This document shows positions 6,266 to 31,941 of a DNA stretch of 34,306 bases, piece by piece (the stretch's first letter is position 1; every line of letters begins with the position of its first letter). The stretch comes from a bacterium (GTDB taxonomy: Bacteria > SAR324 > NAC60-12). The stretch is from contig CBDDTI010000073.1 in assembly GCA_965233585.1 (NCBI GenBank), positions 1 to 34,306 of the forward strand, given 5' to 3'. The notes beneath the pieces are model-generated. The model worked only from the letters and a program-made list of their open reading frames with translations. It had not been told where the DNA came from and ran no database searches. Both the position numbers and the translations under genes were made by a program.

Positions 6266-6520
6266 TTACGACCCTATGTTAAATTCAAATTCCAAGGGTT
6301 CTGCAGGGCAGCCAGTGGGAACACCATTAAAGACACACATCAAACATCTCGAGTTCAGATGCAAGAGGCCTGGCATAGATGGCGCAACCGACTATGAAAA
6401 AGGGCAAGCCCTTTTGAGGTGTCAAATTTCCCAAAAGTCGCCGCCATCTATACGAGCACGTTCGAATTGGACAGAGCCATACTTTTTCAAACCGGTGTAG
6501 TTGTTCAGTTTCTTAGTTAG

Positions 6521-7264
6521 TTCCCCACCTGCCAGGTGAGGGTTGTTAGATTTTATGTCAGTTGCTTGCTCCTCCTCCTCCTCTCCTCGTCTCCTCTCCT
6601 CGTCTCCTCTCCTCGTCTCCTCTCCTCCTGCTCCCTGCCGGACCTCAACCACGACCATCACCGCCCAGTGTTCCCTGCCGGACCTCAACCGCGAGTATCC
6701 ACGCCCAGTGTTCCCTGCCGGACCTCAACCACGACCATCCCCGCCCAGTGTTCCCTGCCGGACCTCAACCACGACCATCCACGCCCAGTGTTCCCTGCCG
6801 GACCTCAACCGCGAGTATCCACGCCAAGTGTTCCCTGCCGGACCTCATGTAGGAAGATAAAATGTCAGATAGAGTGCCAGAAGATTTGCCAGGTAGAATG
6901 CCAGAAAATATGCCAGAAGATATGCCAGATAGATATGCCAGAAGATATTCCAGAAGATATGCCAGATAGAATGCCAGATAGAATGCCAGATAGAATGCCA
7001 GAAGATATGTCAGAATATATGCCAGAAGATATGCCAGATAGAATGCCAGATAGAATGCCAGAAGATATGTCAGATAGAATGCCAGAAGATATGCCAGATA
7101 GAATGCCAGAAGATTTGCCAGATAGAATGCCAGAAGATATGCCAGAAGATATGCCAGATAGAATGCCAAATACAATGTCAGAAGATATGTCAGATAGAAT
7201 GCCAGAAGATGTGCCAGTAAGAACATGTATAAATGTCATGGTGGGGATCACACGAAGTAAAGTA
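6521..7264 (+). mobile_element. Non-autonomous Helitron2/Helentron-like element, copy 1
   Basis: Starts TTCCCCACCTGCCAGGTGAGGG (hairpin CACCTG-C-CAGGTG) and ends GTCATGGTGGGGATCACACGAAGTAAAGTA. TCCCCACC/GGTGGGGA form asymmetric inverted repeats. Interior: CCT-rich tract, about five 40-bp units (6633-6847) and a 12-bp ATGCCAGAAGAT/ATGCCAGATAGA array. The same ends occur at 11490-12359 and 17191-18073. The repeat family is certain; the superfamily is inferred. Confidence 0.75.
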
Positions 7265-8105
7265 TTTAGTTAGTTAGTTAGTTAATTTGTTTGTTTGTTT
7301 GTTTGCTTGTTTGTTTGTTTGTTTGTCTGTGTGTGTTTGTTTGTTTGTTTGCCTGCTTGCTTGTTTGTTTGTTTGATTGTTTGTTTGTTTGTGTGTGTGT
7401 TTGTATGTTTGTTGGTTGGTTTGTTGGTTGGTTTGTTTGCGTTTTTTGTGCTTGCTTGTTTTTTGCTTGCTTGTTTTTTGCTTGCTTGTGTCTTTGTTAG
7501 TTCCTAGTAACCTAGTTTGTTTAATAGTTAGTTCAATAGTTTGTTTGTAAGTTTGTTACTTAATTAGAAAGTAAGCAATTAAGAAAGTAAGCAAGCAAGC
7601 AAGTACGAAAGTAAGTAAGAGTAAGTAAGAGTAAGTAAGCGTTTAACTAAGTAAGCAAGCAAGCAAGTAAGTAAGTAAGTAAGAAAGTAAGTAAGTAGGA
7701 GAGTAAGAGTAAGTAAGAGTAAGTAAGAATAAGTAAGAGTAAGTAAGAGTAAGTAAGAGTAAGTAAGAGTAAGTAAGAGTAAGTAAGAGTAAGTAAGAGT
7801 AAGTAAGAGTAAGTACGAGTAAGTAAGAGTAAGTAAGAGTAAGTAAGAGTCAGTAAGAGTGAGTAAGAGTGAGTAAGAGTGAGTAAGAGTGAGTAAGAGT
7901 GAGTAAGAGTGAGTAAGAGTGAGTGAATGAGTGAGTGAGTGAGCAAGCAAGCAAGTAAGTAAGTAGGAGCAGCAGGAACAGGAGCAGGAGCAGGAGTAGG
8001 AGTAGGAGCAGCAGTAGCAGTGGCAGCAGCAGTAGAAAGCAGAAGGAGAAGTAGAAGTAGAAGTGGAGGTAGAGGTAGAAGTCGAGGTAATAGCATTAGA
8101 AGTAG
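7265..8105. repeat. Compound microsatellite: (GTTT/GCTT)n, (AAGT/AAGC)n, 10-bp (AAGTAAGAGT)n grading to (GAGTAAGAGT)n, then (GCAGGA/GTAGAA)n
   Basis: Visible tandem units; they explain the ORFs at 7291-8199. Confidence 0.95.
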
Positions 8106-10237: not shown

Positions 10238-11017
10238 ATGGCAAGAAGGTTAACAAAAGAACAAATTATCAGCAACACTTACTACGATGTTGAAAGTGGC
10301 TTCGGAAGTATTCAAGAAACCTTTAAGAAAGAAAGAACATAAAACCAACAAAATCCAGAAATAAGTCTAGATGATGTTCAACACATTATGACAAAACAAC
10401 CAAACAAACAAATGAATGCCTATAGAGGTTCTAATTCTTTCACAGCCCCGTTCGCCCGTTATGAGTATCAAATAGATATAATTGATATAATGGTTATGGC
10501 GCCACTTTCCAAAGAATCAGAGGTAAAAATAACACCAACCAAAAAAGAACCAAAATATGCATTAGTAGTCATTGATATTTTCAGCAAATACGCTGATGTT
10601 TTACCAATGAAAGAAAACAATTCGGAGAGCGTATTAGAAGCATTGAACCAAGCATTTAAAAAGATTGGTTTTCCAATGTCCATTTATTCAGACAATGACG
10701 TGCGTTCCAATCAGTCGTTAGGAAGTTGTTTGATGACGAAGGCATACAACACATCGTCACGCAGACCCACGCAAATGTAGCGGAAAGGTTTATAAAAACA
10801 ATGAAAAATATAATGCACGAGAGGCTCAGGTTTAATAAAGCAGGTTGGACATCAATGCTGACACCAGCACTGAACAAATACAATTCCACCAAGCACTCAT
10901 CAACGAAGATGTCAACAAAACAAGCACACAAGGACGAGAACAATAGCACTGTGAGGGTAAGTTTAACATTAAGAGAAAACAACCGAAGAAAGTATCCAAC
11001 CATACGAGAAGGTGATA
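10238..11017 (+). pseudogene. rve-family (Polinton/Maverick-type) DDE integrase, frameshifted and 3'-truncated
   Basis: MARRLTKEQIISNTYYDVESGFGS...YEYQIDIID...YALVVIDIFSKYADVLPMK...PMSIYSDND [frameshift near 10700] AFQS...THANVAERFIKTMK...LNKYNSTKHSSTKM: the D, D, E core and the YN..xHSS motif of c-integrases. Stop/frameshift near 10340. Confidence 0.9.
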
Positions 11018-11161
11018 ATCGCTTCTAAGAAGTATCGCGAGTTTGAAGTTCAGAGTTTATCAGAAGCCTTTTACTTTTTGCGTGGCACACTTCATTTCAT
11101 GATTGCACACCAGAACTCAGTGAATATGTCATACCGCCAATTTAGAAAAAACAAATATGTA
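11018..11161 (+). pseudogene. Probable Polinton-like virus major capsid protein fragment, part 1
   Basis: IASKKYREFEVQSLSEAFYFLRGTLHFMIAHQNSVNMSYRQFRKNKYV continues in frame at 12923 after removing the TIR element. It resembles the second jelly-roll pattern (K.YP...S..E.FY.L...Y...KF.IG..FE) as recalled for PLV capsids. Confidence 0.55.
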
Positions 11162-12920
11162 CAGGCAGATGTTGAAGGCGGTACCGGTGGTATAAAATAG
11201 AGCTGTTCCCTTGTAGAAAACATTCAGGTGAAGGCGGTACCTTTAGCACTTAGTATGCGTTTCACAGACATTGGATTAAGCATGCCAGACCTTGGATCAT
11301 CTACTAACGCTAGCGTTAAGTCGTATCAGCTCGTAAAAGTCGTATCGGGAGGCCGTGCGCCTGGAAAAAGTTCAAATTTGGCATCACCACAACTTTTAGT
11401 AATTGAACGATTTCATTGTTTTGGGGCCGTGCGCCAGGAAACAATTAAATTTTTGTATGGCGTTGATTTTTAAAACTTATATTTGATCATTCCCCACCTG
11501 CCAGGTGAGGGTTGTTAGATTTTATGTCAGTTGCCTGCTCCTCCTCTCCTCTCATCTCCTCTCCTCCTCTCCTCCTCCTGCTCAACCGCGACCCTCGACC
11601 ACAGTGGTCTCTGTCGGACCTCAACCACGACCATCCTTCTCAGTGTTCCCTGCCGGACCTCAACCACGACCATCACCGCCAGTGTTCCCTGCCGGACCTC
11701 AACCACGACCATCACCGCCAGTGTTCCCTGCCGGACCTCAACCGCGGGTATCCCCGCCCAGTGTTCCCTGCCGGACCTCAACCACGACCATCCACGCCCA
11801 GTGTTCCCTGCCGGACCTCAACCGCGAGTATTCATGCCAAGTGTTCCCTGCCGGACCTCAACCGCGAATATCCACGCCAAAAGATATGCCACATAGAGTG
11901 CCAGAAGATATGCCAGATAGAATGTTAGAAGATATGCCAGATAGAAGGCCAGAAGGTATGCCAGATAGAATGTCAGCTAGAATGCCAGAAGATATGCCAG
12001 ATAAAGTGCCAGAATGTTTGCCAGATAGAATGCCAGCAGATTTGCCAGATAATATGCCAGAAGATATGCTAGATAGAATGCCAGATGGAATGCCAGAAGA
12101 TTTGCCAGATAATATGCCAGAAGATATGCCAGATGGAATGCCAGAAGATATGCCAGAACATATGCCAGAAGATATGCCAGAAGATATGCCAGAACATCTG
12201 CCAGAAGATATGCCAGAACATCTGCCAGAAGATATGCCAGGTAGAATGCCAGATAGAATGCCAGATCGAATGCCAGAAAATATGTCAGATAGAATGCCAG
12301 AAGATTTGCCAGTAACAAAATGTATAAATGTCATGGTGGGGATCACACGAAGTAAACTATTTTTTTCAATGGGGCAAACGCTGGTTGCTGCTTGCTTGCT
12401 GCTTGCCTGCTGCTGGCTGCTGCTTGCTGCTGCTTGCTGCTGCTTGCTGCTGCTTGCCTGCTGCTTGCTGCTGCTGTTTCTTGCCTGCTTCTTGTGTGCT
12501 GGTCCAGCACAATTTTTGATATGGAACCTTTCTGTCCAAACCTGACTTTTGAATCCGGAGTTCCAGTGCGAATTAAAACACACTGTTCATGAGATTCTGG
12601 CAGGAGTAGTCTTGAGAAGCGGAGTTCACATGGGGATTTGCTCAAGTGGTTTGGGCAGGTCTGAAGCATCAGTAAAAGCCAGCGTTCCATGGGAACGGCG
12701 AGTCATCAACCAAATATGTTTAATAGTTTGGGTACCGGCGTTCCATTGGAAAGATGTTTCCGGAAATGGGTGTTTTCAAGTCTACAAACCGTAAGCGTTA
12801 AAGCGTTTTCATTGGGTTTCATAGTCCATGCCCTGCCTTTCCTGACTTAGCCGTGACCACGGCGTTCCATGCAGGAACGCATATTCTAGCACCACCGGTC
12901 CTGCCTTCAACGTTCTCCTG
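11162..12920. mobile_element. Non-autonomous TIR DNA transposon (Tc1/mariner-like ends) with a nested Helitron2-like element
   Basis: Left end CAGGCAGATGTTGAAGGCGGTACCGGTGGT versus reverse complement of the right end CAGGAGAACGTTGAAGGCAGGACCGGTGGT (24/30). TA is duplicated at 11160-11161 and 12921-12922, and excision restores a reading frame. Subterminal repeats GAAGGCGGTACC, GGCCGTGCGCC and GCGTTCCA are present. Confidence 0.85.
11490..12359 (+). mobile_element. Non-autonomous Helitron2/Helentron-like element, copy 2
   Basis: Same 5' end (TTCCCCACCTGCCAGGTGAGGGTTGTTAGATTTTATGTCAG) and 3' end (GTCATGGTGGGGATCACACGAAGTAAACTA) as copy 1; 39-40-bp and 12-bp arrays; followed by a T run. Confidence 0.75.
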
Positions 12921-12922
12921 TA

Positions 12923-13093
12923 ATTGTTTTTCGCTTTGAAAACATGCAAGAAATTAATTTTATCGGCACTTTTGAAGCAAAAGGAACTGAAGGAAACTTA
13001 GCTTAAATTGAACAAATCCAAGAAACGTTTGTTAATTTAGTCCTTGAGAATGTCCTTGAATTAACTGAAAGCGGGGCGACATTTTATGATTCA
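12923..13093 (+). pseudogene. Probable major capsid protein C-terminus, part 2
   Basis: IVFRFENMQEINFIGTFEAKGTEGNLA*IEQIQETFVNLVLENVLELTESGATFYD, in frame with 11018-11161, with one internal TAA at 13004. The terminal beta-strand pattern (FV.L..E.VLEL...G...YD) is typical of double jelly-roll capsid C-termini. Not in the ORF track. Confidence 0.55.
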
Positions 13094-13443
13094 AATATGT
13101 GTTTAATTACTATTTGATCAATTTTCCAAGCCTTTAAAAAACCAAACAAAGCAAAACTACAGAAAACAGATGAGCAAACTTGAGGGGAAACCATCTAGGA
13201 CGGGCACGCACAAGCATCAGGAGGCAAGGTATATGAAATTGTTAAAAGAAAAACAGGATGAGAGAGAAACCAGAGACAAACTACTCGCAATAAGAAATGC
13301 CAGTGAATTATAGTAATGAAATCCGAAGGGACAACCTCACACATAATAGTCTAGAGCACCTACCGCATCAAATAAATAAATGTAAAATTGGTTCTACATA
13401 ATTTTTTACTATAGCAACAACAGTGATAATTAATGTGAACAAG

Positions 13444-14594
13444 ATGTCAAAAGATGGTTTAAAAAGAAAAACCTACCTATGTTGAAATTATATGAAATTA
13501 TCGGAAGGCTTGATGACAATGAGAGGGAAAAATACCAAATAGGGATGATTTTTTTCAAACGTAACCCTGAAGGATCATTTTTTGATGGGTCAGATGCCAT
13601 GGAACAATTTAGGGAAGAACGGGGAAAATTATTATTAAGACAAATGCTAGATGTTTTTGTAAGGCAAAATGCAAGAACAGCAGGGTTTCACACTGAAAGC
13701 ATGCAACAAATACCCACAACATCATCAACAATAGCACAGCCAACTCAACCCATGGATGTAGATGCAGAATTTACACAGCAGGCTACACCGGCAATACCAA
13801 GTTCATCAACAACTCAAGCATCTCAACTCAATGCTGAACTGACACAAAGAGCAAATACAGCAACCAAAGGAGAGAAGAAACAGAAATGAACCACATAGGA
13901 GAAGTGTTCAAACAAACCAAACCCACAATAACTGAGAAAATACATCACATAAACCCACCAGGAAGTTTTTTCCCATAAAACATGAAAGTTACAACATAGC
14001 AACTGATGATGAACCAATGCCACCAGTTCCAAAAGCAAAACTTAAAGCAGAGGCATCACCATTTTCAAGTTCTCACGCATTTCCCGTTATAAAAGTCATG
14101 GATGCAAGTTGCAAGTAGCAGTTCTAAAAGAGCCTCACTTGAAACAACAGTAGAACCAAGAGGTAAAGCAGGGAAACCTAAGATGTTCAAAGAAGGAACC
14201 GACAGAATGAATGCAGACAAGAGGAACGGAGGTAGTCTTGAAGACGAACTTAAAGTGAGAAAGAAACGTAACAAAAGGAAAATTGAGTTCGAAATAGGAG
14301 GAGGGGAAACTGACGATGAAATTGATGAACCAAAAGCCATTAGGAAAAAACAATGCAAAAACCAGTAGGTCCAAACACCATAGGAGTGCAAAGGTTAAAG
14401 AGGAACTTGTTAATGCCAACAACAACAACAAAATGATTTCAAAACAGCAGTGTGACATGTTTGACCGTGTTTGTTACGTATGGCTCAAATCGAAAGGCGG
14501 GGAAAAGATGAAAAAACAAATGTTGAAGCAAACGCGGGTTACTTACAAAGCGAATTTGTTTCAGAAATTGAAGGATGAATATAAGAAACAATGA
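13444..14594 (+). pseudogene. Multiply frameshifted low-complexity (Q/T/S then K/E-rich) protein gene of the viral element; function unknown
   Basis: Chain of same-strand ORFs (13479-13889, 14102-14368, 14316-14594) starting near ATG 13444 (MSKDGLKRK...); the stop overlaps a perfect hairpin. Confidence 0.55.
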
Positions 14595-16621: not shown

Positions 16622-19600
16622 TCAAGCACTTATTGAATAATGTCCGTATGGCACGCTGTCAGTATCGTTCAACCAATACCTTTTATTATCACAACTGCTC
16701 AGTCCTACTTTGTTTGCTGTGTCAGGAGGTTTTTGCTTTTGATGGCTTTGAAATTTACATTCTTGGGTATGTGCTCGTGTAAGGTGGTTTCATAGTTTTT
16801 CATATCTAAGTTTTGTTACCTTTTAGTTTTGGAATTCCCTTTGTTTTCTTTTCTGCTTCCTTTTCCTTGAAATTTTTTCGACAATACATTTTCAGGCCTC
16901 AACGTTATGAATTTAGTTGTGATTTAACCGCCCATTTCGTTCTTAAATTTACACTGATTGTTTTTATTATAGCCGCTAAAATCCACATACTCATTAATTT
17001 CCTTTCAGTTTTCTCAAATGTTTTCCGTAAATGTTTGTATAACATATTTGTCCGGTGATCCTGATGTCGTCCTTACATTTTTTCTTAAAACATCATAGTG
17101 GACACTACACATATGCACATTTGAAGGGTTTAGTAGTGACATACGTAAAAAAAAAAAAATGGTTTGTTGAGTTTCAATTTCGTTTTTTTTTTCCCCACCT
17201 GCCAGGTGAGGGTAGTTAGATTTTATCAGAGCTGTTGTCCTCCGCCTCCTCCTCCGCCGTCTCCTCCTCCAGTTTCTCCTCGACCATGTCTGCATCAACT
17301 TCCACCTCCACTTCCGCCTTGCCAACTCTTCGCCAAGCTCTTCGCCAACTTCCCAGCTCAGTGCGCACTGCTGGACCTCAACCTGGGACCTTCCCAGCTC
17401 AGTGCGCACCGTTGGACCTCAACCTGGGACCTTCCCAGCTCAGTGCGCACCGCTGGACCTCAACCTGGGGCCTTCCCAGCTCAGTGCGCACCGCTGGACC
17501 TCAACCTGGGACCTTCCTAGCTCAGTGCACACCGCTGGACCTCAACCTGGGACCTGCTGAGCTCAGTGCGCACCGCTGGACCTCAACGGCCAGATAGAAT
17601 GCCAGAAGATATGCCAGATAGAACGCCCGATAGAATGTCAGAAAGAATGCCAGAAGATATGCCAGATAAAGTGCCAGAATGTTTGTCAGATAGATGGCCA
17701 GAAGATATGCCAGATAGAATGCCAGAAGGTATGCCAGATAGAATGCCAGAAGGTATGCCAGATAAAGTGCCAGAATGTTTGCCAGAACATATGCCAGAAG
17801 ATTTGTCGGAGAGAATGCCAGATAGAATGCCAGAAGATATGCCAGAAAATATGCCAGATAGAGTGCCAGAAGATACGGCAGAACATATTGCAGAAGATAT
17901 GCCAGGTAGAATGCCAGAAAATATGCCAGGTAGAATGCCAGAAGATATGCCAGATAGAATGCCAGAAAATCCGCCAGATAAAATGCCAGAAAATATGACA
18001 GATAGAATGCCAGAAGATTTGCCAGTAACAAAACGTATAGATGTCATGGTGGGGATAACTCGAAGTAAAGTAATAGTTTTTCAACTCCTGACAGTTCTTC
18101 GTTGATGATATGACATCCCGTGTAATTAGAATTGTTAATGCATTTTGGTATTTTATTTTGTGTTGCTAATAATCCAAAATCAATGTGGTTGCTGACGTTC
18201 TCGTTCGTTTTACCATAGCATTTTTCATCAGTTTCAACATATCTCTGTTTAAATTTGGCCCCTTTATGGACTTTTGTTAGTGTCATGTCTTTCGTTAAAT
18301 AAAACTGTAGAATTTGATGTGAACCACATCATTTGTTTTGAATTGTTGGTTTAATATGAGTTTTGGTTGCTTCTTGTCCCTTGTTTCTTTTCCAATCATT
18401 ATTATAATGTATGTATAAATCCCTCTGGTGTTTTGATACAATGTTTTTGTTCAACCTTCATGTTTTTTGGAACTAACGGATAATCTGACTGTTCGTCGTG
18501 TATCTCCTTTTTGGGTATTCAAATTCAATTTCAAATATGTATGCGTTGTCATCGTTTTCGTTCCAGTCCATTATTTTTTTTCTGTTAACCTGTTTTTTTA
18601 TCCACTTCAATTTTCGTATTGGTAGTTTCATTGACATCGCCAGTCCGTAAAGTTTATTCGCGTCCAAGTAGTTGATATAATTAGACCGTTTGCTTTCATC
18701 ATAGTCGTCCATCATCGCCTCCGCTTCCTTATGACTGACCTGACACATCCCACCCCTGAAACCCTTCTCTATCATCTCATACATGTTTTTATCACTTAAG
18801 GGGCCTATTTCAATCCCAGTTTTCAACAACATAGCGTCCCAAGCAAAGTTAGGCAATGTAAAGTAATGCGCGGGTTCTAAACCGTAGTATTCCAAACATA
18901 AGCCTCCAAAATTTTCAGAAGCATCAGTGAGCAACAAAACACCGGTTCTCAAATACAAATCGTGATACTGTCCGAGGTTTCTTTTCCCGAAGTGCTTCCA
19001 TATTTTAAGTGTTTTTTCATACTCATCATCTTCAATATGATGTTCGGTGAGATTGCTGTAAAAGGGTTCTTTCGGTGATACAGTGCAGTTGTTTTCCCCT
19101 GAATTTATCAAAGGCACCTTCATCAGTCAGTAAATCTAAATTCTCGCCATTACTCGCATATGGTTTTTTCTGACTAAACTTGATTTTTCCCAGTTTTCCT
19201 TTATGTTTCCTTTTTCACATTTACTCAATTCAACCCGTTTGTCCGAAGAAAATGATAAGAAAGAAAAACCGTCCTTGAAACAAAAATGTTTAAAAGCAAA
19301 GGTGATATTTTTTTCGTCGTTCAACGCTATTACATCATTTCTATTTCATTTCTACCGTTCTGCGATACTTCATTCGCCCTCTCAATGATTAAATGACCGT
19401 CTTAGTTTTGTAGATTATGAGGGAAGACTGGGTCTTTGTAATAGCGCATTGAAAATTGTAAATTACAATCGTCGTGGGCGCACCCCCTGTATTCACATGT
19501 AAAGTGGCAGTGGTCGCGAACGTTGTTGTCGCCTTTTTGAAACTCATTACCACATATAAAGCATGTAGTGACGGTTTTAAAGCCTCTCCAGTCATCAGCC

Positions 19601-21139
19601 CTGATAATGATTTCTTTATTTTTTCATTTTGTTCATAATCTTATAGTTTTTTACTTCAACCGTTTTTTTGGACGAATACATCCATACAATATTCGCCACT
19701 GTATAGGAAAGGCTCATTGGAATTATCAATGGAATTATCAACATGAATCATAAAACTGCAGGGTCTGTGATGTTGGTAGCGGTCGGTTTTAAGTTCTTTC
19801 GTGCTGACCGTTCCTGGTTTGGTTGTTAAGCATGCAAAGTCAGCATATATCACCAATGGAGGTTTTAACTTTTTGTAACCGTTCTTGAAAACCATAATTT
19901 GTGTTTTCTTTTGGCATTTTTATCTGTTGCCCTTCCACTGCCATACATCCCGAAACTTTTCGGTGTGTTGGTTTAAAAGTTGTTGTGATTGAAAGCCACG
20001 ACTGCAATGAAAGCAATGATACTTCTTTATTTTTTTGGTTTGGTTTCCCATCAACTTGTCATAATTTTTGATAAACACACCATGGTAGTCGTCTCCGTGA
20101 AACTTGAAGGCTTACTTGATGAGTTGTTTTTAGTGTTTTAGTTTTTCCACATAATAGGATTGACTGTTTATTTTCTTCGGGGTTCGGAAAATAAACATTA
20201 ATTTAATTGCAATTTTGCCTTCGTTGTTTTTTTCAAAGGTGTCTATATCAACATTGGGTGTTAGAACATTTACATTGTTCCAGTTAAGTTCATCATTCAA
20301 TTTTTTATAGTTATATAATCTGTTTGGATTGTCTTTCATAGTCTTTGCATATACCACATTGGACGGAATACTTGAAACATTGGTTGTCTTCGTTTTGAAT
20401 TTTGATACACGCCTTTTTGTCTGAAACCAATTTGGTAATGGAATGAATTTGCCCCCACGAGTTGGACTGAATTTGTCCATGTTGAATTGCAATGTATCAA
20501 TTTGGGTTATTACTAAACCGCTCTTTGATAATTCCATCTTACCCATTTGAAATTCAATATCTGTTGCTATTTGGGTTGAAACATTTGTGATTTCTTCTTC
20601 GTTGGTTATTTCGTATCTCCTGTTTTTTACTGTGTGTCTTACCTCTTCGTTGGTCTTGATGCTTTTGAAGGTGTTGAAGGTTTTTAAACATTACTTTCAT
20701 ACCCTTGTTCTGTCGTCGTAGATACTCTTTCATTTTGAAGTCTTGATGTTTAAGATATTGTAATGCCTTGATGCCTCTGACCCTGATGTTGCTGATGGCA
20801 TTAGAAGTTGTGTAGTTCTTGAAGGCAGATTGTTCGTCTGTAACGGTTGTTTTGTAGCGTTTTTGTATTCCTGTAAGTGTTTTTTGTTCTTGTCTAAATT
20901 TACCAATCTAAGACCTTTCTGTTCTTTCAGTTCGTATTTCTTGTGTTCAATGGTTTGTTTCACTTTGTTGAATTTGTTTGCAAGTCTCTGTGTGATGGGT
21001 TTGTTCCTATCAAAATTGTAGGTCTTGTCTCCTACCTTCAGCTTCTTGAATTTTCTTCCATTCTGTTTAACGATTTCCCCCTCTTTGGAGGTTGACAGAC
21101 AATCTACAGTAAAACAATCTTCTGTGAGCCTTCCATCAT
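16622..21139 (-). pseudogene. Protein-primed family B DNA polymerase (Polinton/Maverick type), full length but heavily frameshifted and interrupted by the 17191-18073 insertion
   Basis: Collinear motifs: GGKFIPLPNW..CIKIQNEDNQCFKYS; YHCFHC; ExoI PPLVIYADFA; CFIC..VRDHCHFTCEYRGCAHDDCNL; ExoII HNLQNYDGH; ExoIII LGQYHDLYLRTGVLLLTD; PAHYFTLPNFAWDAML; GFRGG; motif A YLDANKLYGLAMSMKLP; YGKTNEN. After the insertion: KLNKP..MS..HYDVL, KFKNEMGG, and C-terminal KVGLSSCDNKRYWLNDTDSVPYGHY ending at TGA 16622-16624. Motif C (YxDTDS) is not recognisable. Confidence 0.92.
17191..18073 (+). mobile_element. Non-autonomous Helitron2/Helentron-like element, copy 3 (different subfamily) inserted in pPolB
   Basis: Same termini (3' GTCATGGTGGGGATAACTCGAAGTAAAGTAA); a 41-bp array TTCCCAGCTCAGTGCGCACCGCTGGACCTCAACCTGGGACC plus the 12-bp array. 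Removal rejoins pPolB GVEKL|KTKLKLNKP at a T run with no distinct target duplication. Confidence 0.8.
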
Positions 21140-21437
21140 ATTATAGCCTATATGATTATACGTATTATTATTAGTTGGTGCTTTTTTAAGTAGATTTAGT
21201 GATGGATTTTGGGGTTGAGGATGTTGAGACTGAAGTCGTTGTTGATTGGGTTGAGTTTCAGCATTCATTCTACTCTTTCACCTTGTATCCCCTGCCATAT
21301 ACTCCCCAATATATAATGTAATATTTTTTAAGTTGTTTTTGGGGTTTTGGTTTGCTGGTGGATTTTTTTGTGATTGGGGTTGGAGTTCAACCCATAAACA
21401 TTTTTGATAAAATTTATCACGATTTTTTCCGATTTGT

Positions 21438-21765
21438 TCAGCAATTGTCTTTCTGGTTCATGCACCTGTTCGTTTGGCGATGCTTTGATAGGTTGGATTT
21501 GCTTGATATTGTCCGTCCGCAGTTGGGGCAGATGTAAGGGGTTTTGAGTTTTTTTGATAATGGTTTCTAAAGTAGTTGGGGTCTAAGGGTTTCTTGTTAT
21601 ATGTTCCGTCGGGTTGCCTGCCTGTGGATTTTGTGTGGGTTGGTGAGTTGTGGATGTTGTCGGATTGGCGCAGTGTTTCCACCAATTGGTTGAAAAGGTC
21701 TTCGTCTATTTCTTGCCTAAGTCCGTCTATAAACATGTAGCAGGCCACACTTTCTCTTAATTCTA
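21438..21765 (-). pseudogene. Small zinc-finger protein gene (C-x2-C-x12-H-x5-C), frameshifted, 5' end cut by a repeat
   Basis: ...GRQPDGTYNKKPLDPNYFRNHYQK [frameshift in an A run near 21550] LKTPYICPNCGRTISSKSNLSKHRQTNRCMNQKDNC*; co-oriented with and upstream of pPolB. Confidence 0.7.
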
Positions 21766-21960
21766 GAAGATATGCCAGATAGAATGTCAGAAGATATGCC
21801 AGTCATATAGAATGTCAAAAGATATGCCAGCCGTCGTCGTTGTCGTCGTCGCTTGAACCAAAACGGCTATATAGTATTTTTATATTAGGGCAAATGGCAC
21901 GGTAATAAGTCTGCCTTTGTCAAACCCCCCTCGCTCCTCTTTTACCGTGCCACCCCCTTT
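21765..21960 (+). repeat. Short 12-bp ATGCCAGA-type array remnant, (GTC)n and an 11-bp inverted repeat; probable end of another interspersed element
   Basis: AGAAGATATGCCAGATAGAATGTC units at 21765-21830; TGGCACGGTAA (21895-21905) and TTACCGTGCCA (21942-21952). Confidence 0.55.
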
Positions 21961-22110
21961 TATCTGATGTAAAATTTGTATATAATTTATGTATCACGTA
22001 TGTATATATATATATATTTGTTTATTTATGGATGGATGGATGGATTGGTGGAATGACGCGTGGATGAAAGGATAAGTCATGAACCTGCATCAAACATATA
22101 TATATATATA

Positions 22111-22682
22111 ATGTCAAGTTAGGATTAATAATCCCCGCGGTATTAATCAACCCCCTCTGCCCAATTTTTTTGGTAATTTAAAAAAAGGTGGTCCCCCAGG
22201 ATTAATAAACCCCCCGATTAAAAAAACACCAGTGCTGAAATAATTTTTTTATCCAACAATTTTTATTTCCAATTCTATTTATTTCCAATTTGTTTTTACC
22301 TTTTTTTAAATCATCATCGTTATACTTAAGGTTTAAGTTGATCATTGAAAAATTCAAAAAATGACTATTCCCCAAATGATCGATTTCTAATTAAAATCTT
22401 TATAAAAATCATCAGTTTGGATAGCTCCCAAAGGGTACCCCCCATGAGCCCATGTCCCCCACTAATAATAACCATGGTTTGCCCCTGATTAATCAACCAC
22501 CTTTCTGATCCATGAGATTTTAACAAATCCAATAGAATTCTATTAAGATCTAATTGACGTAAGCCATATCCAAATTTTTATGGTTCAGAGTTGCTTATAT
22601 TATTAAGGGGTGGTCGAGAAACTAGCCAGAAGGTACCCCCCTACCTACCAGGGGCGGGGGTTGATTAGTCCGATGTTGGCAT
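22111..22682. mobile_element. MITE of about 570 bp inserted in (TA)n
   Basis: Left ATGTCAAGTTAGGATTAATAATCCCCGC versus reverse-complemented right ATGCCAACATCGGACTAATCAACCCCCGC; TA on both sides; internal repeats of ATTAATNAACCCCC at about 22142, 22201 and 22488. Confidence 0.7.
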
Positions 22683-27994: not shown

Positions 27995-30401
27995 GACTGA
28001 CCTGACACATCCCACCCCTGAAACCCTTCTCTATCATCTCATACATGTTTTTATCACTTAAGGGGCCTATTTCAATCCCAGTTTTCAACAACATAGCGTC
28101 CCAAGCAAAGTTAGGCAATGTAAAGTAATGCGCGGGTTCTAAACCGTAGTATTCCAAACATAAGCCTCCAAAATTTTCAGAAGCATCAGTGAGCAACAAA
28201 ACACCGGTTCTCAAATACAAATCGTGATACTGTCCGAGGTTTCTTTTCCCGAAGTGCTTCCATATTTTAAGTGTTTTTTCATACTCATCATCTTCAATAT
28301 GATGTTCGGTGAGATTGCTGTAAAAGGGTTCTTTCGGTGATACAGTGCAGTTGTTTTCCCCTGAATTTATCAAAGGCACCTTCATCAGTCAGTAAATCTA
28401 AATTCTCGCCATTACTCGCATATGGTTTTTTCTGACTAAACTTGATTTTTCCCAGTTTTCCTTTATGTTTCCTTTTTCACATTTACTCAATTCAACCCGT
28501 TTGTCCGAAGAAAATGATAAGAAAGAAAAACCGTCCTTGAAACAAAAATGTTTAAAAGCAAAGGTGATATTTTTTTCGTCGTTCAACGCTATTACATCAT
28601 TTCTATTTCATTTCTACCGTTCTGCGATACTTCATTCGCCCTCTCAATGATTAAATGACCGTCTTAGTTTTGTAGATTATGAGGGAAGACTGGGTCTTTG
28701 TAATAGCGCATTGAAAATTGTAAATTACAATCGTCGTGGGCGCACCCCCTGTATTCACATGTAAAGTGGCAGTGGTCGCGAACGTTGTTGTCGCCTTTTT
28801 GAAACTCATTACCACATATAAAGCATGTAGTGACGGTTTTAAAGCCTCTCCAGTCATCAGCCCTGATAATGATTTCTTTATTTTTTCATTTTGTTCATAA
28901 TCTTATAGTTTTTTACTTCAACCGTTTTTTTGGACGAATACATCCATACAATATTCGCCACTGTATAGGAAAGGCTCATTGGAATTATCAATGGAATTAT
29001 CAACATGAATCATAAAACTGCAGGGTCTGTGATGTTGGTAGCGGTCGGTTTTAAGTTCTTTCGTGCTGACCGTTCCTGGTTTGGTTGTTAAGCATGCAAA
29101 GTCAGCATATATCACCAATGGAGGTTTTAACTTTTTGTAACCGTTCTTGAAAACCATAATTTGTGTTTTCTTTTAGCATTTTTATCTGTTGCCCTTCCAC
29201 TGCCATACATCCCGAAACTTTTCGGTGTGTTGGTTAAAAAGTTGTTGTGATTGAAAGCCACGACTGCAATGAAAGCAATGATACTTCTTTATTTTTTTGG
29301 TTTGGTTTCCCATCAACTTGTCATAATTTTTGATAAACACACCATGGTAGTCGTCTCCGTGAAACTTGAAGGCTTACTTGATGAGTTGTTTTTAGTGTTT
29401 TAGTTTTTCCACATAATAGGATTGACTGTTTATTTTCTTCGGGGTTCGGAAAATAAACATTAATTTAATTGCAATTTTGCCTTCGTTGTTTTTTTCAAAG
29501 GTGTCTATATCAACATTGGGTGTTAGAACATTTACATTGTTCCAGTTAAGTTCATCATTCAATTTTTTATAGTTATATAATCTGTTTGGATTGTCTTTCA
29601 TAGTCTTTGCATATACCACATTGGACGGAATACTTGAAACATTGGTTGTCTTCGTTTTGAATTTTGATACACGCCTTTTTGTCTGAAACCAATTTGGTAA
29701 TGGAATGAATTTGCCCCCACGAGTTGGACTGAATTTGTCCATGTTGAATTGCAATGTATCAATTTGGGTTATTACTAAACCGCTCTTTGATAATTCCATC
29801 TTACCCATTTGAAATTCAATATCTGTTGCTATTTGGGTTGAAACATTTGTGATTTCTTCTTCGTTGGTTATTTCGTATCTCCTGTTTTTTACTGTGTGTC
29901 TTACCTCTTCGTTGGTCTTGATGCTTTTGAAGGTGTTGAAGGTTTTTAAACATTACTTTCATACCCTTGTTCTGTCGTCGTAGATATTCTTTCATTTTGA
30001 AGTCTTGATGTTTAAGATATTGTAATGCCTTGATGCCTCTGACCCTGATGTTGCTGATGGCATTAGAAGTTGTGTAGTTCTTGAAGGCAGATTGTTCGTC
30101 TGTAACGGTTGTTTTGTAGCGTTTTTGTATTCCTGTAAGTGTTTTTTGTTCTTGTCTAAATTTACCAATCTAAGACCTTTCTGTTCTTTCAGTTCGTATT
30201 TCTTGTGTTCAATGGTTTGTTTCACTTTGTTGAATTTGTTTGCAAGTCTCTGTGTGATGGGTTTGTTCCTATCAAAATTGTAGGTCTTGTCTCCTACCTT
30301 CAGCTTCTTGAATTTTCTTCCATTCTGTTTAACGATTTCCCCCTCTTTGGAGGTTGACAGACAATCTACAGTAAAACAATCTTCTGTGAGCCTTCCATCA
30401 T
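27995..30401 (-). pseudogene. Duplicated 5' portion of the pPolB pseudogene, truncated just after GFRGGMCQVS
   Basis: Same motifs and the same lesions as 18733-21139. Confidence 0.9.
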
Positions 30402-30699
30402 ATTATAGCCTATATTATTATACGTATTATTATTAGTTGGTGCTTTTTTAAGTAGATTTAGTGATGGATTTTGGGGTTGAGGATGTTGAGACTGAAGTCG
30501 TTGTTGATTGGGTTGAGTTTCAGCATTCATTCTACTCTTTCACCTTGTATCCCCTGCCATATACTCCCCAATATATAATGTAATATTTTTTAAGTTGTTT
30601 TTGGGGTTTTGGTTTGCTGGTGGATTTTTTTGTGATTGGGGTTGGAGTTCAACCCATAAACATTTTTGATAAAATTTATCACGATTTTTTCCGATTTGT

Positions 30700-31027
30700 T
30701 CAGCAATTGTCTTTCTGGTTCATGCACCTGTTCGTTTGGCGATGCTTTGATAGGTTGGATTTGCTTGATATTGTCCGTCCGCAGTTGGGGCAGATGTAAG
30801 GGGTTTTGAGTTTTTTTGATAATGGTTTCTAAAGTAGTTGGGGTCTAAGGGTTTCTTGTTATATGTTCCGTCGGGTTGCCTGCCTGTGGATTTTGTGTGG
30901 GTTGGTGAGTTGTGGATGTTGTCGGATTGGCGCAGTGTTTCCACCAATTGGTTGAAAAGGTCTTCGTCTATTTCTTGCCTAAGTCCGTCTATAAACATGT
31001 AGCAGGCCACACTTTCTCTTAATTCTA
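30700..31027 (-). pseudogene. Duplicated zinc-finger gene
   Basis: Copy of 21438-21765. Confidence 0.7.
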
Positions 31028-31370
31028 GAAGATATGCCAGATAGAATGTCAGAAGATATGCCAGTCATATAGAATGTCAAAAGATATGCCAGCCGTCGTC
31101 GTTGTCGTCGTCGCTTGAACCAAAACGGCTATATAGTATTTTTATATTAGGGCAAATGGCACGGTAATAAGTCTGCCTTTGTCAAACCCCCCTCGCTCCT
31201 CTTTTACCGTGCCACCCCCTTTTATCTGATGTAAAATTTGTATATAATTTATGTATCACGTATGTATATATATATATATTTGTTTATTTATGGATGGATG
31301 GATGGATTGGTGGAATGACGCGTGGATGAAAGGATAAGTCATGAACCTGCATCAAACATATATATATATA

Positions 31371-31941
31371 ATGTCAAGTTAGGATTAATAATCCCCGCGG
31401 TATTAATCAACCCCCTCTGCCCAATTTGTTTGGTAATTTAAAAAAAGGTGGTCCCCCAGGATTAATAAACCCCCCGATTAAAAAAACACCAGTGCTGAAA
31501 TAATTTTTTTATCCAACAATTTTTATTTCCAATTCTATTTATTTCCAATTTGTTTTTACCTTTTTTTAATCATCATCGTTATACTTAAGGTTTAAGTTGA
31601 TCATTGAAAAATTCAAAAAATGACTATTCCCCAAATGATCGATTTCTAATTAAAATCTTTATAAAAATCATCAGTTTGGATAGCTCCCAAAGGGTACCCC
31701 CCATGAGCCCATGTCCCCCACTAATAATAACCATGGTTTGCCCCTGATTAATCAACCACCTTTCTGATCCATGAGATTTTAACAAATCCAATAGAATTCT
31801 ATTAAGATCTAATTGACGTAAGCCATATCCAAATTTTTATGGTTCAGAGTTGCTTATATTATTAAGGGGTGGTCGAGAAACTAGCCAGAAGGTACCCCCC
31901 TACCTACCAGGGGCGGGGGTTGATTAGTCCGATGTTGGCAT
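31371..31941. mobile_element. Duplicated MITE
   Basis: Copy of 22111-22682. Confidence 0.7.

Follow-up and report, generated by a model that had tools for sequence, protein, structure and literature searches.

Polinton-like viruses (PLVs), the Tlr1 element and the transpovirons share a characteristic signature: a fusion of an N-terminal polymerase domain with an SF1 helicase, accompanied by stand-alone GIY-YIG nucleases (PMC5499653; also PMC12721341). In the described fusions of the Tlr1 group the polymerase domain is inactivated (PMC5499653), and in the literature covered PLVs with a polymerase-helicase fusion are tied to protists (PMC5499653, PMC12721341). In protist genomes, PLV-type capsid genes number in the tens of thousands, and other mobile elements split some of them (PMC10120064); stony coral genomes contain hundreds to thousands of endogenous polintoviruses plus some PLV relatives, most of these coral elements encoding PolB and a retroviral-type integrase and a few of them helicases (Stephens, Faghihi and Moniruzzaman 2024, PMC11131425). 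The locus considered here lies at positions 11018-13090 of a 34,306-nucleotide stretch of DNA (the window), which is the entire contig CBDDTI010000073.1 (C73) of a 12-Mb, 747-contig assembly, GCA_965233585.1, filed under the bacterial lineage SAR324. With a probability that we put at roughly 0.88, this locus is the non-functional 3' remnant (codons 401-513) of a double jelly-roll (DJR) capsid gene from an endogenous PLV with a Tlr1-like polymerase-helicase fusion, which was joined to an integrase gene and then split by a TA-flanked element. It resembles the published coral elements in being part of a set of many paralogous, partly decayed capsid-encoding elements and in its presence in sequencing runs labelled as coral metagenomes; however, the coral survey retained only regions of 10-50 kb with capsid, penton and ATPase genes, so that a 1.8-kb fragment like the present one would have been excluded from it (PMC11131425). 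The locus adds another decayed fragment of an endogenous virus to a type that is common and already catalogued in corals and protists, and it is useful as a marker of a recombination between two related element types that was later hit by a transposon.

An earlier interpretation made from the letters alone (the sequence-only reading) had proposed that the excision of 11162-12920 together with one TA restores a continuous reading frame of about 105 residues containing a single stop, and frame, length and stop are all as it described. To the left of the element the frame has no stop between 10973 and 11161; to its right it reads through 12923-13003, meets a stop at 13004-13006 and then continues without a stop to 13090 and further. 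The two pieces were each aligned on their own, never as a joined peptide, to P0001, an intact 513-residue protein encoded by contig C424 of the same assembly; they meet at its residues 448/449, and they are in frame only without the element and exactly one TA. In the right piece, with the stop read as X, 31 of the 65 columns are identical to residues 449-513, with one 9-residue gap (BLASTP, E 3e-16; the left piece is given in the table). DNA-level alignment to both close paralogues shows the same adjacency of the two halves, and tblastn of P0001 against the whole 12-Mb assembly detects the two window pieces with E 8e-15 and 5e-09. The homology of both pieces to the capsid protein is thus far beyond chance. 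The same tblastn search returned two intact close copies, three 466-residue copies at 26% identity (C581, C322 and C657) and, within the window, only this fragment. Removing the transposon recovers a frame that lists of open reading frames (ORFs) miss, and the recovered frame is the tail of a viral capsid gene, which validates the approach.

What is left of the gene is not a working one. The window copy keeps only the last 113 of 513 codons, approximately the second half of the C-terminal jelly roll, and its right piece has, in addition to the in-frame stop, a 27-base (9-codon) deletion and a sense codon (13091-13093) where the terminal stop has been lost. Compared with the C424 gene it shows 102 base differences, distributed as 26/21/55 over the three codon positions (47/102 at positions 1 and 2), as against 28/16/140 for the 184 differences that separate the whole C424 and C155 genes (44/184 at positions 1 and 2); this split by codon position shows that constraint on the window copy is relaxed and that the intact copies are under purifying selection. 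At 13004, the first letter of the in-frame stop, three of four public runs (X4, X6 and X9) differ and X1 does not, so that the stop is polymorphic among individuals or close species. The window copy is therefore a dead pseudogene fragment in a rearranged, decayed element. The sequence-only reading had taken the recovered stretch for a cryptic reading frame encoding the C-terminal jelly roll of a PLV capsid protein: the capsid fold and the virus type are borne out by the 513-residue relatives and the genes around them, whereas the fragment covers only residues 401-513 and belongs to a pseudogene rather than to a cryptic working gene.

The two intact copies are 513-residue ORFs located at 15029-16570 of C424 (P0001) and, on the minus strand, at 13575-15116 of C155 (P0002), and they are the uninterrupted genomic copies of about 400-600 residues for which the sequence-only reading had suggested a tblastn search. 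They are 95% identical, with 26 of 513 residues different and 140 of the 184 base differences at third codon positions, an excess that argues for purifying selection on a working capsid and hence for recently active elements. They are better objects of study than the window fragment. Homologues of P0001 at E <= 0.001 number 374 in one library and 1291 cluster representatives at 50% identity in another, and the family comprises hundreds of near-identical members on long contigs. The two halves separated by the element in the window are contiguous in both close paralogues, and 110 of the best 120 homologues cover 96-100% of the protein; homologues in which the halves are never contiguous would have spoken against a split gene.

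Thanks to a structural model of P0001, the family can be assigned a fold. The AlphaFold2 model, built from a 51-row alignment (mean pLDDT 78.0, pTM 0.83), consists of two beta-sandwich halves, and its top Foldseek match in the PDB is the Vp54 major capsid protein of PBCV-1 (E 2.3e-17, TM 0.54/0.64), followed by iridovirus, Sputnik, EhV, faustovirus, ASFV p72 and vaccinia D13. Structural superposition with VIA-align gives a Z score of 26.2 to the PBCV-1 protein (rmsd 3.1 A over 347 residues, model range 16-513), and lower scores to the faustovirus (24.4), ASFV (23.3), Sputnik (18.3), mavirus (17.1), PRD1 P3 (16.0) and adenovirus hexon (12.8) proteins; all 50 of the matches listed are DJR capsid or D13-type scaffold proteins. 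Sequence identity to the solved capsids is 6-11%, and matches of the model in BFVD are mostly giant-virus proteins, along with virophage, adintovirus and Tetraselmis virus S1 proteins. Judged by this predicted structure, the 513-residue protein is a DJR major capsid protein of the PRD1-adenovirus lineage, as the sequence-only reading had anticipated for full-length homologues of the fragment. The final strands of the second roll, and a single long helix in it, fall within residues 401-513 of the model. A search of IMG/VR viral contigs with the single protein as query gave 9 pattern matches, none of them confirmed as a relative of P0001.

The gene set to which the intact capsid genes of C155 and C424 belong spans roughly 20 kb. 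Around the capsid gene, C155 encodes a 247-residue protein, in which a serine-hydrolase-like SHSLGS motif is recognizable by eye only, a GIY-YIG ORF, a 107-residue ORF, a 365-residue low-complexity protein and a protein of 1349 residues (P0271), beyond which lie another GIY-YIG ORF and a 306-residue rve-like integrase; further along the contig there are homologues of the Pox_A32-type ATPase, the methylase and the fibre-chaperone-domain protein found on C581. P0271 (6730-10779, minus strand) contains an SF1 helicase domain (PF01443) at residues 929-1056 and a cysteine-rich tail at its end. A model of its residues 250-900 (pLDDT 85) has nine Foldseek matches at E <= 0.001, all nine to phi29 DNA polymerase chains (E 2e-07 to 2e-06), and weaker ones to other family B polymerases (E >= 0.01); an Atlas feature search gives DNA_pol_B_2 with a score of 0.91, to be taken as a lead only. 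Near the start of this model there are weak matches to OTU-type protease folds (E about 0.1), a protease type other than the adenain/Ulp1-like maturation proteases, and no protease family occurs among the Pfam matches of 17, 17 and 15 ORFs of C424, C155 and C581/C657, respectively. Homologues of P0271 with 1200-1400 residues are plentiful on long contigs. The fusion is missing from the window by tblastn. As for the packaging ATPase family, a 227-residue ORF of C581 matches Pox_A32 with E 4e-11, and its homologue on C155 (22033-22706, 40-42% identity) is in two pieces that form no single ORF; none was seen in the window or in the examined part of C424. GIY-YIG paralogues number four on C155 and four on C424, a distribution that resembles the spread of homing endonucleases within elements, and the sole pair of long inverted repeats in C155 is formed by two of these paralogues.

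This gene content supports the assignment of the intact elements to the PLVs, and within them to a Tlr1-like helicase group. The C155 and C424 elements share with Tlr1 and with the PLVs of Bigelowiella natans the DJR capsid, the polymerase-like/SF1 fusion, the stand-alone GIY-YIG nucleases and, on C155, an A32-like ATPase homologue, and with Tlr1 of Tetrahymena also an integrase (Krupovic, Yutin and Koonin 2016, PMC5499653). In contrast to the Tlr1-group PLVs, whose hosts are protists, the probable host here is an animal (a coral), and the window copy is a 113-codon tail only (PMC5499653). Another comparable system is OmPLV of the dinoflagellate Oxyrrhis marina, where fragmenting, endogenised PLVs encode a fusion of an SF1 helicase with a protein-primed PolB, as well as GIY-YIG nucleases and an A32 ATPase, and show gene decay and a behaviour like that of transposable elements, as here (PMC12721341). 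OmPLV nevertheless differs in having the helicase at the N terminus, a tyrosine recombinase and a G+C content of about 25%, whereas the present elements have the polymerase-like part at the N terminus and an rve-like integrase (PMC12721341).

The block that splits the capsid frame is a 1759-bp non-coding segment that starts with CAGG and ends with CCTG, is directly flanked by TA on both sides and has imperfect inverted repeats in its outer 30 bases (24 of 30 positions matched), in agreement with the 1.76-kb TA-flanked transposon-like element of the sequence-only reading. The 21-base core of the repeat has exactly two matches in the window, one per strand and both at the ends of the block, and two or more matches were obtained in 0 of 100 shuffles. 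There is no gene inside: none of the seven ORFs inside or overlapping the block has a Pfam match at E <= 0.01, and its long 'ORFs' are translated tandem arrays made of 39-41-base and 12/24-base units and a TGC-rich run (Tandem Repeats Finder). The interior holds a repeat module that recurs in the window at 6520-7270 and 17188-18074, the copies measuring about 850-880 bp with conserved ends, and that is also present on contigs C108, C501, C615, C524, C422 and C451, with a contig word depth of 10^5 to 10^6 in public runs; at 11487-12355 it is either nested in the 1759-bp element or was captured by it. In four runs, the summed contig word depth over most bins of the element's arms exceeds the depth of the flanks by a factor of about 5 to 1000, one bin of the right arm being the exception at flank level or lower, and this rough measure suggests a multi-copy family in the host; the repeat-rich interior shows gaps in depth. 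Separately, a tblastn match to a 414-residue viral ORF of C581 is split by a gap of 841 bases (17206-18046), at the same place as the module copy at 17188-18074.

Duplication of a TA upon insertion is the signature of Tc1/mariner-superfamily transposases. Because of the TA on both sides, the short inverted ends and the lack of a transposase, the block fits a non-autonomous member of that superfamily, whose insertion would have produced a 2-bp duplication; its CAGG start presumably resembles the ends of pogo/Tigger elements. It has in common with the miniature elements of the superfamily the flanking TA, the short inverted ends, the missing transposase and the raised depth over most of its arms, but it is long for such an element, owing to the tandem-repeat module of about 870 bp in its interior, and, unlike the superfamily's families, it has neither an autonomous partner nor a second copy within the assembly.

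On the other side of the capsid remnant, two genes are truncated at one and the same breakpoint. The 313-residue integrase ORFs of C581 and C657 match the window by tblastn at 59-60% identity in two frames, and this homology ends at residue 254, that is, at 11016, with capsid homology starting at 11018; the Pfam rve match of the window integrase has E 3.5e-07. The possibility that the left half of the capsid frame was an integrase C-terminal domain read in another frame was rejected, as integrase homology stops at residue 254 of 313 and capsid homology begins at the next base. The integrase belongs to a second element type (C581 5500-22700; C657; C322), which encodes the 466-residue capsid protein 26% identical to P0001, the Pox_A32 ATPase, a methylase fragment, the 313-residue integrase, a protein with a Peptidase_S74 (fibre chaperone) domain and an 863-residue protein with a sub-threshold match to endonuclease VII. 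Downstream of the capsid tail the remnants are again of the C155/C424 type, up to the end of the low-complexity protein gene, and from 16628 onwards genes of the C581 type follow on the opposite strand. Since C581-type homology lies on both sides, about 1.8 kb of one virus type replaces the interior of another. The GIY-YIG cassette of about 800 bases that lies 3' of the capsid gene in C424 and C155 is missing in the window, where only 29 bases separate 13093 from 13122 (the corresponding intervals are 16620-17273 in C424 and 13136-13504 in C155).

Taken as a sequence of events, the locus would have arisen when a virus-derived piece of about 1.8 kb, without the insertion and comprising the capsid tail, the small ORF and the next gene, was joined to the truncated integrase of the second, related element type, either by illegitimate recombination or by deletion. 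Next, the non-autonomous inverted-repeat element would have entered a TA that lay between codons 448 and 449 and was duplicated in the process, and the fragment would have decayed further. The features of the locus are collected in the table below.

Features of the capsid remnant and its surroundings (window positions)
Feature	Position	Strand	Evidence
Decayed integrase gene of C581/C657/C322-type element, residues 1-254 of 313, frameshift near 10699, 3' end lost	10238..11016	+	
Breakpoint between truncated integrase and truncated capsid gene, at most 1-3 shared bases	11016..11017	.	DNA alignments
Capsid remnant, left piece (codons 401-448 of 513)	11018..11161	+	BLASTP to P0001, 35/48 identical, E 4e-22; tblastn
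Left TA of presumed 2-bp target-site duplication	11160..11161	.	Sequence; frame continuous only with one TA removed
Putative non-autonomous 1759-bp element with terminal inverted repeats, no transposase, tandem-repeat-filled interior	11162..12920	.	
Left terminal inverted repeat	11162..11191	+	24/30 bases complementary to 12891-12920
Inner repeat module, about 870 bp, arrays of 39-41- and 12/24-base units	11487..12355	.	blastn, alignments, Tandem Repeats Finder
Right terminal inverted repeat	12891..12920	-	Pairs with 11162-11191
Right TA of presumed target-site duplication	12921..12922	.	Sequence
Capsid remnant, right piece (codons 449-513)	12923..13090	+	BLASTP to P0001, DNA alignment, translation
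Remnant of the 107/108-residue ORF that follows the capsid gene in C155/C424	13122..13386	+	tblastn, 49-53% over 59 residues, 75% over 24
Frameshifted remnant of the 365/401-residue low-complexity protein gene of C155/C424 type	13494..14591	+	tblastn in three frames, 47-67%; blastn, 71-74% over about 1.05-1.13 kb

A number of results weigh against this explanation in one part or another. The capsid call rests on the predicted fold, because no Pfam, PHROGs or PDB sequence match names a capsid: Pfam assigns no family to P0001, and 51 members of its family give no significant match, with one DJR-like_dom match at E 0.022; PHROGs has no match for P0001; and searching the PDB by sequence, with the single protein or with the 51-row profile, returned nothing relevant. 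The label PLV is taken from the gene content of the paralogous loci and not from a capsid phylogeny, and neither a penton protein nor element ends were identified around the intact copies, where several neighbouring ORFs have no Pfam match. The rve matches of the integrases in the window, C424 and C155 (E 4e-07 to 1e-06) reach 29.3-30.9 bits, with 30.9 bits for the window gene, below the cut-off of 32.6. As regards the inserted element, no second copy of its ends occurs in the 12-Mb assembly (blastn; 30-base search with up to 6 mismatches), and the insertion site reads TG, not TA, in both paralogues, so that the single-TA empty site is deduced from the reading frame only. At the left end, public contigs reach only 25-28 bases into the insertion, fewer than the 31 bases required for a bridge. 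Finally, the host, probably a stony coral, is read from run labels and base composition only.

Other explanations of the locus have to be set against the same evidence. The gene could be alive if the 1.76-kb element acted as an intron, in the manner of an 'introner'-type transposon, and a working capsid were still made; the frame is exactly restored without the element and one TA, and intron-generating transposons carried by DNA viruses have been discussed (PMC11957031). This is extremely improbable, given that the first 400 codons are gone and a truncated integrase stands in their place, that the right piece is broken by an in-frame stop, has lost 9 codons and does not end in a stop codon, and that the 3' end of the element, which reads CCTG followed by TA, lacks an AG. 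It might also be supposed that the order of integrase, capsid tail and insertion is a chimera of repeated families put together during metagenome assembly and existing in no genome, as the contig comes from a mixed bin, the region is filled with repeats and the window contains a near-identical duplication spaced by 9.26 kb. Of the 24 runs listed, however, 20, which come from 11 studies, contain the region 10700-13400, and contigs were mapped at the locus in four public runs from four studies: in all four, contigs of 438-441 bases span 10749-11186/11189 with 0-2 differences, bridging the junction between integrase and capsid gene, and further contigs span 12886-13400 with 0-4 differences, crossing the insertion's right end and extending 35 bases into it. 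Because contigs of four public runs carry it, the junction is no assembly chimera, and the two families share no common repeat there but only 1-3 bases; we consider a chimeric order very improbable. The same mapping includes one RNA-labelled run (X9), which carries the locus at low depth; DNA is possible in such libraries, so this is no sign of transcription.

A different question is whether the 513-residue family goes back to the capture of a giant-virus (Nucleocytoviricota) capsid gene rather than to a PLV. The ranking of structural matches could be read in this way, with PBCV-1, faustovirus and ASFV ahead of Sputnik and mavirus, and so could the predominance of giant-virus capsids in BFVD. 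An identity of 6-11% to every solved capsid nevertheless makes fold rank no guide to lineage, the intact copies lie in compact sets of about 20 kb with integrase, polymerase-helicase fusion, GIY-YIG nucleases and an A32-like ATPase homologue, and the ORFs scanned showed no further hallmark of giant viruses, so that capture from a giant virus is improbable and a PLV remains the preferred source of the fragment.

With regard to the genome in which the fragment resides, the 'prokaryote' assembly is, by length, mostly eukaryotic DNA. Grouped by rounded ORF cover, 3.09 Mb are in contigs at 0.8-1.0 (including contigs of 1.07, 0.83 and 0.62 Mb) and 6.58 Mb in contigs at 0.0-0.3, and the G+C content of contigs, 0.34-0.46 with a median of 0.39, is uniform across the assembly. 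The window has 77 stop-to-stop frames of at least 100 residues, the longest of which (352 residues) is repeat-derived. The window contig is eukaryotic DNA that was mis-binned by composition into a bacterial assembly, and the locus thereby serves to flag that assembly as mostly eukaryotic by length. The marker-based contamination figure (2.09%) is blind to the eukaryotic majority.

The host is probably a stony coral. Several of the runs with the exact locus, from several studies, are labelled coral metagenome, and the runs bear at least five organism codes. The G+C range fits stony corals better than Symbiodiniaceae, and the 21-base dinoflagellate spliced-leader motif has no match in the 12-Mb assembly when up to 2 mismatches are allowed, which is weak evidence. 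These observations speak against a protist of the coral holobiont, for instance a dinoflagellate, as the host, in which case the fragment would be a protist endogenous virus. For such a host, on the other hand, speak gene models with the prefix Skav, attributed by a source to a Symbiodiniaceae genome project, some of which share 68-72% identity with the capsid protein and others 36-71% with the polymerase-helicase, as well as the thousands of such capsid genes in dinoflagellate genomes (PMC10120064). A protist host is, on balance, unlikely, though it deserves to be taken seriously. The Skav matches mean either that the symbiont carries a sister lineage of the virus group or that those scaffolds need re-examination. 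The Skav capsid models often exceed the viral ORF in length (722-762 residues), as though gene prediction had fused neighbours.

A further step, possible but doubtful, would be to regard the C424 and C155 relatives as a recently active PLV lineage with a Tlr1-like polymerase-helicase fusion that is resident in the genome of an animal, a stony coral. If this were true, an animal-resident and possibly particle-forming PLV lineage would widen the host range of the group, and the window fragment would bear witness, as a fossil, to earlier activity of the lineage, one part of which was recombination with the second, related element type.

Elsewhere in the window, 21 other ORFs have no Pfam match at E <= 0.001, and no inverted repeats of at least 60 bases occur between 9000 and 32000. 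The segments 18733-22544 and 27995-31803 form the direct duplication with 9.26-kb spacing; the reported blocks are 91-100% identical and include several viral genes of the C581 type, and the duplication could be either a true segmental duplication or an effect of the assembly. C581 itself seems to carry a second, partial copy of its element at 42900-51700.

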